NCBI GenBank assembly: GCA_050250255.1
Contig: JBFWOZ010000064.1
Span: 1-12,928, forward strand
Direction: 5' to 3'
Source: Bdellovibrionales bacterium
Lineage (GTDB): Bacteria > Bdellovibrionota > Bdellovibrionia > Bdellovibrionales > DASUEL01
Length of the DNA: 12,928 nt
Each line of letters starts with the position of its first letter. The first letter of the stretch is position 1. The notes beneath the pieces were generated by a model, which saw only the letters and a program-made list of their open reading frames with translations, was not told the origin of the DNA and searched no databases. Position numbers and translations under genes: made by a program. Of this stretch, positions 7,972 to 12,737 are shown piece by piece.

Positions 7972-8747
7972 GATTTCTTTACATGTTTTTGGACGAAGTG
8001 GGGCGAGAGGCTCTGTTTTTACGACAGATTGTCGAGACGGCCTGGTACCGACCATGTTCTTGGCACAGCATTTGTGAACAGATTTATAAAGTCACTATTC
8101 AGAGCTTGGCAACGGTCGCGATGGCAGGTTTTTTTGTCGGCGCGATTATTGTCATTCAATTTACTGTTCAAATTACCGAGTTTGGTGGGCTTGGATATCT
8201 GGGTGGCCTCACCACAAGTAGTGCGATTCGCGAAGTAGGTCCTCTTCTTATCGCCTTCATGTTAAGTGGAAAAGTGGGCGCCTATACTGCGGCCGAACTC
8301 GGAACCATGCGCGTGACAGAGCAAATCGATGCGATTCGCTGTTTGGGCTCTGATCCACTTCAAGAACTCATTCTTCCTCGTTTCATGGGAATTATTATAT
8401 CTAGCTTTCTTCTCCTGCTGCTCGGTTTGATCATGGCGATTGGGGGAGGAATGGTGATGGGAATTTACTTCGCAGATATAAGTTATGAAGAATATCTCCG
8501 GCATATCCCCACAATGCTTACTCTGCCCTCTATATATGGTGGCCTATTTAAGTGTCTTATTTTTTCGATCACGCTCGCGACCATTTGTACTTACAAAGGT
8601 TATTCGGCGAGCGGTGGAGCACGTGGGGTAGGTAAAGCAGTTGTACAGACGGCAATGATGACGATGATCGGGATCGTGCTCGCTGACTGGATCACGACAG
8701 AAGTTGCCAACTCCGTGAAAAACGCGTTTCAAATGGTGCAACTATGA
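7968..8747 (+). CDS. mlaE: MlaE/YrbE-family permease, copy 1
   Basis: REVGPLLIAFMLSGKVGAYTAAELGTMRVTEQIDAIRCLGSDP and GGARGVGKAV motifs; multiple TM segments; ATGA overlap with the upstream gene. Confidence 0.93.
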   Translation: MRFLYMFLDEVGREALFLRQIVETAWYRPCSWHSICEQIYKVTIQSLATVAMAGFFVGAIIVIQFTVQITEFGGLGYLGGLTTSSAIREVGPLLIAFMLSGKVGAYTAAELGTMRVTEQIDAIRCLGSDPLQELILPRFMGIIISSFLLLLLGLIMAIGGGMVMGIYFADISYEEYLRHIPTMLTLPSIYGGLFKCLIFSITLATICTYKGYSASGGARGVGKAVVQTAMMTMIGIVLADWITTEVANSVKNAFQMVQL

Positions 8748-10918: not shown

Positions 10919-11028
10919 GGTTTAAAAGCCTCGTATCTGGCATTTTTTCAGCTGCTTTTCTCCGTGAAATGCGCGTCTTGACAGCAAAGCTCACTTTTAG
11001 TCAATTGCACCCTTATTGGGGGTTTTTT

Positions 11029-11316
11029 ATGAAAAGTCTTGTTTTAGCTCTAACGCTATTCTCATCGACAGTATCTGCAGAAATCATTTATCGCAGTTCC
11101 ACTGAGGCGGTTGTAGCCATACCCGCTCGTCGTTACGTCAACATGTCCGAATATCCGGCCTACGTTGCGAAGTGTGTAGGGGAGTTCAATGTTGAACGCG
11201 CCAAGCTTGTGAATCTCGGATTCACGATTGTTCACGAAGTAGAATGTCGTTATGTGAATCATCCCCACTCGTACGGAATCGCTGGGGCCTATGGAGAAAT
11301 CTTCTTCCTAAGATAA
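11029..11316 (+). CDS. Small secreted hypothetical protein (95 aa)
   Basis: ATG at 11029 after a GGGGG RBS gives a clean signal peptide MKSLVLALTLFSSTVSA; two Cys; followed by a terminator. Confidence 0.75.
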   Translation: MKSLVLALTLFSSTVSAEIIYRSSTEAVVAIPARRYVNMSEYPAYVAKCVGEFNVERAKLVNLGFTIVHEVECRYVNHPHSYGIAGAYGEIFFLR

Positions 11317-11325
11317 AATTTAGGT

Positions 11326-11357
11326 AAAAAAAAGCCTCCATTAACTGGAGGCTTTTT
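11326..11357. terminator. Bidirectional intrinsic terminator
   Basis: A8-GCCTCCA-ttaac-TGGAGGC-T5; perfect 7-bp stem between convergent stops at 11316 (+) and 11380 (-). Confidence 0.92.
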
Positions 11358-11379: not shown

Positions 11380-11460
11380 CTATCGGCGCGCTTTTTTGCG
11401 AGTCGCTTTTTTCTTTGTAGTCTTCTTAGCTTTTTTTCTAGTAGCTTTCTTCTTAGCCAT
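11380..11460 (-). CDS. 26-aa highly basic histone-H1/protamine-like peptide MAKKKATRKKAKKTTKKKATRKKARR (absent from the ORF track)
   Basis: Manual translation ATG(11460) to TAG(11380). RBS AGGAGG 7 nt upstream; own promoter upstream and U8 terminator downstream; repeat units differ at synonymous codon positions. Confidence 0.85.
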   Translation of the reverse strand: MAKKKATRKKAKKTTKKKATRKKARR

Positions 11461-11505
11461 GATCTCTCCTCCTAGGATGAGTTGAACAACCTGTTGCTTA
11501 ATCTA

Positions 11506-11533
11506 AGTGTATAAAAGCAACTCTCACCGTCAA
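11506..11533 (-). promoter_or_regulatory. Putative strong sigma70 promoter for the 26-aa peptide gene
   Basis: Minus strand TTGACG (11533-11528), 16-nt spacer, TACACT (11511-11506), preceded by an A/T tract resembling an UP element (11537-11563). Confidence 0.65.
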
Positions 11534-11562
11534 CTCTTTTTTTATTTAATTAAATCATTTTT

Positions 11563-11601: not shown

Positions 11602-12345
11602 TTGACGTCTTTTTTTGTTTTTGCTGCAGTTTTGGTTGGATTTCGTGTCGATATTCGGATGATTGAGCACCTTTTCAACTCAAAAATCGTTCACAAAAGC
11701 ACAACAACACTTTTGAAACGCAGTTTTTTCTGCATTTATTTTGCGTTGATCCTCTTTTTTGTCAAAAAACCGACGCTTCTATGGTCAGTAGTGCTGTTTT
11801 TAAAGATTTTTTTGCTCTTATTCGAAAAAATCTTGAAGAAATATCGAGAAAATAAATTTCACACACACCTTCTTCTGTTTGTTGATCGTGTGATTCTAAA
11901 TGTGCAAGCTGGAAAATCATTTCGACATGCATTGGAGCGCGCACATGCTGTGAGTGATGTTTTTACGCAACAAAGAATGCGTAAGCTGATTGAATCTGTG
12001 TGTTTTGCGCAACAAATACGCGAAGAAACTCTTCAAAGTGACTTTTTAATTTCTGAATTACGGCAAATTGATCAGAATCCTCACAAAACATTACAAAGAT
12101 TAGAGCAATTACGTCGGCAATTAAAAATTGAGTCCGAGTTTCGACAAAAGTCTGCACAAGTATCGTTTCGGTTTCGGACTCAGTCCTACATCATGTGTGC
12201 TTTGTATTTTGCACTTTTCGTTTTTGTTTTGCGTGTTTGTGACCTGTCACGCACCTGGCCCATGCTTTTAGCATCCATCGTGTTTTTTCTCACAGGCGTT
12301 CTGTGGGTCTTTGTCAGTGGAAGGAGAATCAAATGGAAAGTTTAG
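11602..12345 (+). CDS. Divergent TadB-like / type II secretion F-family inner-membrane protein
   Basis: TTG start with GGAGG RBS. Two TM helices, then 'F...L..FVDRVILNVQAGKSFRHALE' (T2SSF-like start), a helical region, and a C-terminal TM pair ending in basic residues. Confidence 0.65.
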   Translation: MTSFFVFAAVLVGFRVDIRMIEHLFNSKIVHKSTTTLLKRSFFCIYFALILFFVKKPTLLWSVVLFLKIFLLLFEKILKKYRENKFHTHLLLFVDRVILNVQAGKSFRHALERAHAVSDVFTQQRMRKLIESVCFAQQIREETLQSDFLISELRQIDQNPHKTLQRLEQLRRQLKIESEFRQKSAQVSFRFRTQSYIMCALYFALFVFVLRVCDLSRTWPMLLASIVFFLTGVLWVFVSGRRIKWKV

Positions 12346-12737
12346 CGCCTCCATTGAGGTTGGTACTCGCGATGAGACGATCTGTAGAGAGTGGAGAATC
12401 TGTCGCCTCAGCGACGAGAAAGTATCTGCAGCTTCCTGCTGATGAATTAACTCCATTCGTTACTCAGTGTCTGCTGCATAAAAAAGTGGATGGTTCACTA
12501 AGCCCATGTCGTGAGGCTGTCTTAACCGTCATGCAATCTGGACTAGATGGGCAGCCAATTCTACCGGCACTAATGAGGCTGGAACAAGAAATCATCGAGC
12601 AGTGTCAGTTAGAGATGCAAACGACACTGGATCGGATTCCCTTTCAGCTGCTGTGGCCTATGCTTCTCTTGCAATTTCCCGCCTATCTACTGCTTCTCAT
12701 CGGTCCACTCATGGAAGCGCTTTTAGGAGGTTTGTAA
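12333..12737 (+). CDS. Short TadC-like / T2SSF-like protein (134 aa)
   Basis: ATG 12333 with AGGAG RBS, overlapping the previous stop. 'SVESGESV', 'GLDGQPILPALMRLEQE' and TadC-like terminal TM 'LLWPMLLLQFPAYLLLLIGP'. Confidence 0.6.
   Translation: MESLAPPLRLVLAMRRSVESGESVASATRKYLQLPADELTPFVTQCLLHKKVDGSLSPCREAVLTVMQSGLDGQPILPALMRLEQEIIEQCQLEMQTTLDRIPFQLLWPMLLLQFPAYLLLLIGPLMEALLGGL

Follow-up and report, generated by a model that had tools for sequence, protein, structure and literature searches.

Does a micro-open reading frame (ORF) of 26 codons, coding for little besides lysine, arginine, alanine and threonine, constitute a genuine gene, and what could such a peptide do in Bdellovibrionales? 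The question is raised by the window, the whole 12,928-nt stretch of Bdellovibrionales DNA analysed here, in which the ORF occupies part of a 285-nt gap, with a 115-aa ORF converging on it from one side and a tadB-like gene pointing away on the other. A sequence-only reading had taken it for a hidden gene encoding an abundant, histone-H1/protamine-like, nucleoid-condensing peptide. The Bdellovibrio nucleoid is very compact, decondenses during growth and re-compacts before division, according to the accessible text of papers from 2021 and 2025, in which the tight compaction of the B. bacteriovorus nucleoid, excluding free proteins, is stated as an open question. In the accessible part of a preprint (bioRxiv 2025.09.24.678257), the compaction factors are called unresolved, and proteins made late in growth are proposed to prepare the compact state. 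We found that the ORF is a real, conserved, separately transcribed Bdellovibrionales gene for a Lys/Arg/Ala/Thr peptide; the link to Bd3800, the use of published expression data for that gene and the comparison with tails on other proteins come from the present analysis.

The ORF runs from ATG to TAG on the minus strand (11460 to 11380), and a recount of its 26 residues gave 12 Lys and 4 Arg, as first reported, besides 5 Ala, 4 Thr and 1 Met. Without Met, the peptide is about 2.9 kDa with a computed charge of about +16 at pH 7. Both 13-codon halves share KKKATRKKA, whose two copies differ at 5 of 27 nucleotides, every difference being synonymous. The claim of a complete expression unit was borne out: a Shine-Dalgarno (SD) sequence AGGAGG (11468..11473, minus strand) lies 7 nt 5' of the ATG, behind a predicted sigma-70-type promoter (11506..11533, minus strand; TTGACG at 11533-11528, a 16-nt spacer and TACACT at 11511-11506; 9 of 12 consensus matches) and an A/T-rich, predicted UP-element-like tract (11534..11560, minus strand). 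An intrinsic terminator (11326..11357, minus strand) follows, with an RNAfold hairpin at 11357-11334 and U8 at 11333-11326, slightly beyond the interval that the sequence-only reading had delimited. A consensus scan did not list this terminator although RNAfold shows the hairpin, probably owing to pairing between the A and U tracts; the A5 tract likely makes the terminator bidirectional, able to end the convergent plus-strand gene as well. Promoter-like sites were no more numerous in the window than in shuffled sequence (14 vs 17.5 ± 4.1). Among 18,705 ATG ORFs of 20-40 codons in the window's genome, only this one uses at most five residue types after Met, and just one other shares its combination of K+R of at least 50% and a strong SD. 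Another small basic ORF of that genome (contig C68, ATG at 8137, plus strand; 35 aa, K+R 51%, strong SD) is more varied in composition.

The divergent neighbour (11602..12345, plus strand), which served as the synteny anchor, encodes a membrane protein without Pfam or NCBIfam match at cut-off, which we take to be tadB-like, following the sequence-only reading; a tadC-like second neighbour (12303..12737, plus strand) has a weak T2SSF match (PF00482, E 0.0044, below cut-off). This pair (11602-12737, plus strand) is strongly diverged, and its strong matches were confined to the order in a search of 151 genomes of the phylum. On the other side, the 115-aa ORF (10969-11316, plus strand) has no family, a probable start at Met20 and a signal-peptide-like stretch, and none of the 28 other loci checked has a match to it downstream of the peptide gene.

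Homology searches proved blind to the peptide. None of 11 stand-alone members (26-120 aa) fell into a family when scanned against Pfam and NCBIfam, a phmmer-type search with a 44-aa member gave nothing better than E 0.68, and an HMM built from 17 peptides matched only 1 of 151 genomes, missing known positives. A collection of 15 billion proteins contained 0 of 16 members and 3 of 3 control proteins, which marks a blind spot that may stem from gene calling or from a low-complexity filter. The ESM Atlas contains the 43-mer of B. bacteriovorus described below; the nearest clusters there are unnamed proteins of 42-46 aa, and among clusters that have a family assigned, HC2 comes closest (score 0.90, 21% of members). 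We therefore turned to synteny and DNA patterns.

The search with the tadB-like protein gave matches in 37 of 41 genomes, the window's own counted. Twenty-eight of the first 29 relatives' loci returned have a complete divergent Lys-rich ORF, and in the 29th the start of the ORF falls at the contig end. Seventeen further loci, comprising six of the seven remaining tadB-like matches and 11 order-level genomes, yielded 16 complete genes and one broken by an assembly gap; G034 (match at contig start), G210 (weak match) and the four genomes without match were left out. Thus, an orthologue diverges from the same tadB-like gene at all 46 relatives' loci examined (44 of them complete), which were picked by the neighbour gene rather than by the peptide and span 13 families, kin among them not being independent. 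The association with tadB-like genes that the sequence-only reading had suggested checking hence holds throughout, and no complete gene lacks the start or ribosome-binding site, a loss that it had named as a refutation: all 45 complete genes, the window's own included, begin with MA and carry GGAG or GAGG within 18 nt of the start. TTGAC[G/C] lies upstream in 41 of the 45, and 22 of these 41 have TA-N3-T at a spacing of exactly 16 nt. Likewise, in 41 of the 45 genes the stop is followed within 80 nt by a GC run and at least U5. In the genus Bdellovibrio the gene is present at 29 of 30 loci, the remaining locus stopping at a contig end. A GTDB pattern scan, biased by its search pattern, showed the same layout in B. 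bacteriovorus strains, other Bdellovibrio and many Bdellovibrionales metagenome-assembled genomes (MAGs) among the matches listed.

The 45 products are 21-121 aa long (median 29) with K+R of 50-70%, and their 2,281 residues include one acidic residue, six Pro and no Leu, Ile, Phe, Trp, Tyr or Cys. Length varies from 33 to 55 aa inside one genus and sixfold across the order, and 17 short members have only M1, A2, K4, K5 and K22 as invariant positions. Lys makes up 52% and Arg 7% of 2,778 residues, the highest Arg fraction being 27%. The commonest 5-mers in 65 non-redundant genes are KKATK, KATKK, KAAKK, KKAAK and KKVAK. The 13-aa tandem duplication on which the sequence-only reading had built is real, with identical cores and synonymous differences, but it is lineage-specific; the unit of the family is a 4-5 aa motif (KKAT, KKATK, KKAAK or KKVAK) repeated to 21-121 aa.

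Substitution patterns point to selection on the protein. Among eight distinct 36-codon genes, pS was 0.22 and pN 0.0135; two other sets of equal-length orthologues gave 0.18 and 0.019 (four genes) and 0.31 and 0.04 (two genes). Given these pN/pS values of 0.06-0.13 in the genus Bdellovibrio, with variation at third positions, purifying selection acts on the protein as judged from the codon comparisons, which upholds the protein-level selection claimed earlier. It is extremely improbable that the locus makes no functional peptide and instead serves as an attenuator leader that senses lysine, acts as a small RNA or merely shadows a hydrophobic antisense ORF. A short ORF rich in one amino acid followed by a terminator would suit such a reading, as would the weak Rfam matches to leader families and BTnc231 and the open, hydrophobic antisense frame; but besides the low pN/pS, the Rfam matches fall far short of the gathering scores and are mainly due to the terminator hairpin, and an antisense ORF covers at least 60% of the gene in 28 of 45 cases, with an SD in only two. 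All three readings were rejected. A leader peptide would precede a co-oriented biosynthetic operon, and the attenuator fails because the next gene is convergent, by identified gene, in 20 of 29 loci; mdh or icd is co-oriented in five, and the downstream gene at the remaining four is unassigned.

A named record (L045) connects the peptide to an annotated gene. Its orthologue has 132 nt and a GC content of 0.303, and lies 105 nt from a 780-nt gene that is followed by a 438-nt gene; in Table S1 of PMC3627812, Bd3800 (NP_970506.1, hypothetical) has 132 nt and a GC content of 0.30303 and lies 105 nt from Bd3799 (780 nt), followed by Bd3798 (438 nt). The layouts being the same, the orthologue in strain HD100 is Bd3800, annotated as 'hypothetical protein'. 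The gene is therefore not hidden in the strict sense, having been annotated already, but it is only 'hypothetical' and is named in none of the full texts searched. Bd3800 encodes 43 aa without Arg, whereas the window's peptide has 26 aa with 4 Arg. The literature search, with subscription papers and most supplements outside its coverage, returned no paper on the gene or family; the accessible text of PMC11789641 contains nothing on such peptides, and the accessible part of a 2025 list of B. bacteriovorus nucleoid proteins does not include the gene.

All expression data concern the B. bacteriovorus orthologue rather than the window's genome. In Table S1 of PMC3627812, Bd3800 reaches 6,803 RPKM (887 reads) at 3 h of growth and 270 RPKM (118 reads) in attack phase, a 24-fold difference. 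The same table gives, for growth and attack phase respectively, 5,041 and 10.8 RPKM for the histone Bd0055, 3,516 and 6.2 for HU Bd0711, 768 and 14 for HU Bd2104, 4,283 and 48 for IHF and 22,090 and 7.7 for HU-beta. Hence, in growth phase Bd3800 falls among the main nucleoid genes and above Bd0055, itself at the 98th percentile in that phase (PMC10627809, source data), and in attack phase it exceeds all five. The transcript that the sequence-only reading had called for thus exists in B. bacteriovorus and is abundant. By RNA-seq, transcription of Bd3800 peaks in growth, not attack, phase, so the gene is not specific to the latter, although the timing is not settled given a microarray study. In the part of that study available (PMC2797640), Bd3800 showed no significant change on prey entry and 0.80- and 0.78-fold levels in host-independent growth (p 0.053), with Bd0055 and HU-beta up 4-7-fold. 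The mismatch could mean that the gene is timed to the predation cycle, or that probes perform poorly on so A-rich a sequence. RNA contigs, which give neither strand nor level and offer a weak hint only, form short islands over the gene in three of four studies and none over the body of the tadB-like gene. The islands run on for 200-270 nt beyond the predicted start site, reaching the tadB-like gene, and in one run (X1) a single contig covers everything; contig depths in another (X5; 905 over the gene vs 100-126 on the flanks) are unfit for ranking genes and were not used as levels.

The flanking genes behave otherwise, Bd3799 (3 and 10 RPKM in the two phases) and Bd3798 (0.7 and 12) being nearly silent (PMC3627812, Table S1). 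This uncoupled expression bears on the idea of an envelope- or prey-directed cationic peptide that works with the Tad-like genes and the Mla genes for lipid transport on its flanks. The constant divergence from the tadB-like gene speaks for that idea, as does the Mla operon or its beta-barrel gene, convergent on the peptide gene in 20 of 29 loci. We nevertheless hold it to be very improbable: in addition to the expression data, signal peptide and hydrophobic residues are absent, so neither export nor membrane insertion is apparent, and stand-alone look-alikes occur at other loci in other families of the phylum.

A role on RNA or the ribosome, either as a lineage-specific small ribosomal peptide, for which eL41, bTHX and bS22 may serve as models, or as an RNA-coating translation dampener, deserves more weight, and we regard it as unlikely. 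Any polycation binds rRNA, and the growth-phase mRNA level of Bd3800 falls within the range of ribosomal protein genes. Small ribosomal peptides of the eL41, bTHX or bS22 kind have fixed length and conserved sequence, whereas the 21-121 aa spread with few invariant positions would be hard to fit to a fixed ribosomal pocket, and no HMM match was obtained. Moreover, the gene lies outside ribosomal operons, and its growth/attack ratio of 24 compares with 115-1,972 in 12 of 14 ribosomal protein rows (15 of 57 rows labelled 'ribosomal' being covered); the other two, S20 and a second S1, have a ratio of 16. In favour of a role on RNA, chlamydial Hc2 binds RNA, with an affinity above that of Hc1, and represses translation (PMC2848022).

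At the protein level, Bd3800 was absent from the searched part of the life-cycle proteome tables, which list Bd0055, Bd3382 and Bd3802, and from 10 supplementary files of the histone paper PMC10627809, files 6, 7 and 9 lying outside the search; the accessible supplements of PMC11323537 contain neither Bd3800 nor the control genes and are uninformative here. The earlier warning that trypsin would destroy the peptide was confirmed by calculation, with pieces of at most three residues from the window's peptide and at most six in 44 of 45 members. The nucleoid proteomics that ranked Bd0055 first in the nucleoid used LysC/trypsin (PMC10627809). As the peptide yields no usable tryptic or LysC fragment, such proteomics could not have seen Bd3800; trypsin cleavage would explain its absence from proteomes, without proving translation.

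Which known proteins does the peptide resemble? Protamines are arginine-dominated. In contrast, the family is lysine-based with Ala/Thr spacers and is nearer to the H1 C-terminal tail and Hc2; of the histone-H1/protamine-like label, the H1/Hc2-like composition therefore stands and the protamine part does not. Hc2 (HctB, PF07382) and Hc2-like proteins such as Bordetella BpH1 share with the family K/R pairs, A/V/T spacers, repeats of 4-5 aa, length set by in-frame gain and loss of repeats, and hosts whose life cycle is biphasic and whose nucleoid is condensed (PMC2848022). Two basic residues with A/V/T/P spacers in variable number, the repeat pattern by which Hc2-like proteins are recognised, are found here too. 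The Hc2-like proteins differ in being 149-237 aa long with a non-repeat C-terminal part (PMC2848022), whereas the family, at 21-121 aa, is all repeat, with higher charge density (50-70%) and almost no Pro. None of the 11 stand-alone members matches PF07382 at E ≤ 1, a blunt comparison, HMMER composition filters missing known positives as well. Hc1 (HctA) resembles the peptide in a Lys/Ala-rich region without acidic residues, which in Hc1 binds DNA, but has a conserved N-terminal dimerisation domain (PMC2848022), whereas the peptide has no non-repeat domain and no Pfam or NCBIfam match. The three-helix histone fold with the RKT-x-D motif (Bd0055/HBb, FtF and ZZ types) is not represented, the motif occurring in 0 of 45 members and only the tail motif being shared. 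On these comparisons the family is a minimal, domain-less form of Hc2/H1-tail polycation that fails the HMM, length and domain tests of known families.

The C-terminal KPAA domain of Pseudomonas AlgP/PhaF is likewise a disordered, H1-tail-like repeat of variable copy number; AlgP has 352 aa, a folded N-domain and Pro-rich repeats (PMC9239181), whereas the peptide stands alone with Thr/Ala/Val spacers. KPAA peptides bind DNA in vitro, and polyphosphate granule spacing requires the KPAA domain (PMC9239181), so that an AlgP-like polyphosphate-granule binder or DNA-polyphosphate tether may be envisaged. The window's genome does carry ppk1 (PF02503 above cut-off). However, the peptide has no folded partner domain for tethering and its family is nearly free of Pro, and no ppk genes occur among the identified neighbours; we give this reading little probability.

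The same motif recurs as a tail on other proteins. A start-motif pattern matched 66 of 151 genomes of the phylum, and 43 loci were read. Eight of these, from four other families, are genes that stand alone elsewhere in the genome, with all-basic products of 18-129 aa; three of them, in another family of the phylum (L203, L208 and L219), encode 20, 129 and 30 aa, are followed by terminators and have neighbours that are presumably clpA-like and/or miaB-like. At seven loci, all among the 23 of the first batch, the motif forms the N-terminal tail of a histone-fold protein, supported by a bacterial histone-fold chain in the PDB that matches at E 1.5e-9, and tailed histones occur within the order too. 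At many loci it is the tail of SWIB proteins (PF02201 confirmed for both tested); two SWIB-fused tails match PF07382 weakly, at 15 and 22 bits where the cut-off is 40, and one tailed SWIB-type gene (L265:582), from a single MAG, shows an apparent frameshift after 17 codons. Positively charged tails on bacterial FtF histones have been published (PMC11390915). The FtF-histone and SWIB tails of Bdellovibrionota carry a near-identical MAKKKATKK... motif, and the peptide is such a tail as a whole protein, with its own promoter and terminator; given the low complexity, convergence rather than common descent is possible.

The window's genome itself has this tail on two SWIB-like proteins and several housekeeping proteins. 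Lys/Ala/Thr-rich N-terminal tails are found at C14:25538-25888(-), C47:4529-4843(-), C19:14218-14664(+) and C63:8970-9650(-), and further at C6:2524-3438(+), C39 near 8685(-), C2 near 9380(-) and C26:5064-5801(-); judging by their motifs, the tailed proteins are presumably SWIB-, GroES-, Bcp-, Ku-, HIT- and NadD-like. Such tails are possibly a general nucleoid-tethering tag. A 138-aa protein (C5:68594-69007, plus strand) combines a 65-aa Lys/Ala/Thr repeat with a strongly acidic C-terminal half. The sole histone-fold protein found in this genome, which is 99% complete, is of ZZ type (C18:6597-7160, plus strand), searches for a Bd0055-type or face-to-face histone having turned up none. Two other genomes (G019 and G037) have no histone match, yet the peptide gene is present.

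What, then, would such a peptide do? Hc1 and Hc2, which consist of K/R-A/V/T pentamers, condense DNA, and their appearance coincides with condensation of the chlamydial nucleoid (PMC2848022). By analogy with them and with the DNA-binding AlgP peptides, it is probable, if well short of certain, that the peptide is an H1/Hc2-like polycation without domains which, like an H1 tail standing alone, coats and condenses DNA and whose synthesis precedes re-compaction of the chromosome. Its short monocistronic mRNA, of about 170 nt, would be efficiently translated from its strong SD, mainly during growth inside prey, ahead of nucleoid re-compaction before division, and transcription of the gene continues in attack phase, in which the nucleoid reaches its highest density. 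With no hydrophobic core and no acidic residue, the peptide would be disordered and bind polyanions without sequence specificity, and chains carrying +13 to about +75 charges would bridge and collapse DNA by charge neutralisation. Function would depend on charge density, since lengths differ sixfold and the start is the only conserved motif. Against a packing role, the mRNA is far lower in attack phase than in growth, and the same tails occur on non-chromatin proteins of the window's genome, presumably GroES-, Bcp-, HIT- and NadD-like, so the motif is not chromatin-specific. Polycations bind RNA and polyphosphate as well as DNA.

More tentatively, and with considerable doubt, the peptide may be a missing protamine-like packing factor acting as a free histone tail, made in bulk late in growth inside prey to collapse the daughter chromosomes for the attack phase, which escaped trypsin/LysC proteomics and whose fused counterparts act as a nucleoid-entry tag where the nucleoid excludes free proteins. 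If this were true, bacteria may widely possess micro-polycations as a class of chromatin proteins that has been overlooked. The gene is kept at one locus across the order, and the growth-phase mRNA of its B. bacteriovorus orthologue exceeds that of the histone Bd0055; a chromatin role is plausible and directly testable in a genetically tractable model organism.

Several minor features surround the start and end of the gene. In relatives, a TGAC-N7-GTCA inverted repeat lies over the -35 element, and the window has a degenerate copy of it (11518..11532, GTTG for GTCA), GTCA being in place in 21 and GTC in 28 of 41 orthologue promoters. As a regulon motif it was rejected, with 18 occurrences observed and about 25 expected in the window's genome, and its 17-mer version was no commoner than the reversed control over 41 genomes, leaving it locus-specific only: a possible candidate site for an unnamed regulator of the peptide gene or of the divergent tadB-like gene. 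An SD-occluding hairpin (UCCU with AGGA) was also rejected, as SD pairing was 0.51 vs 0.52 with shuffled upstream sequence and higher in 20 of 45 genes; for a CsrA site, the presence of csrA is the only pointer. AACAAC(AAC) runs occur in the leader (5' UTR) of 41 of 65 non-redundant genes (e.g. L007, L045 and L047), a set that is partly pattern-biased, and are probably an unstructured translation enhancer. Finally, a repeat of about 125 bp lies between the Mla-linked beta-barrel gene and the peptide terminator (L047:1008-1136 and L045:1028-1152); it has many copies, 77-92% identical, in most Bdellovibrio genomes searched, RNA contigs branch there, and it looks like a MITE- or REP-type element.
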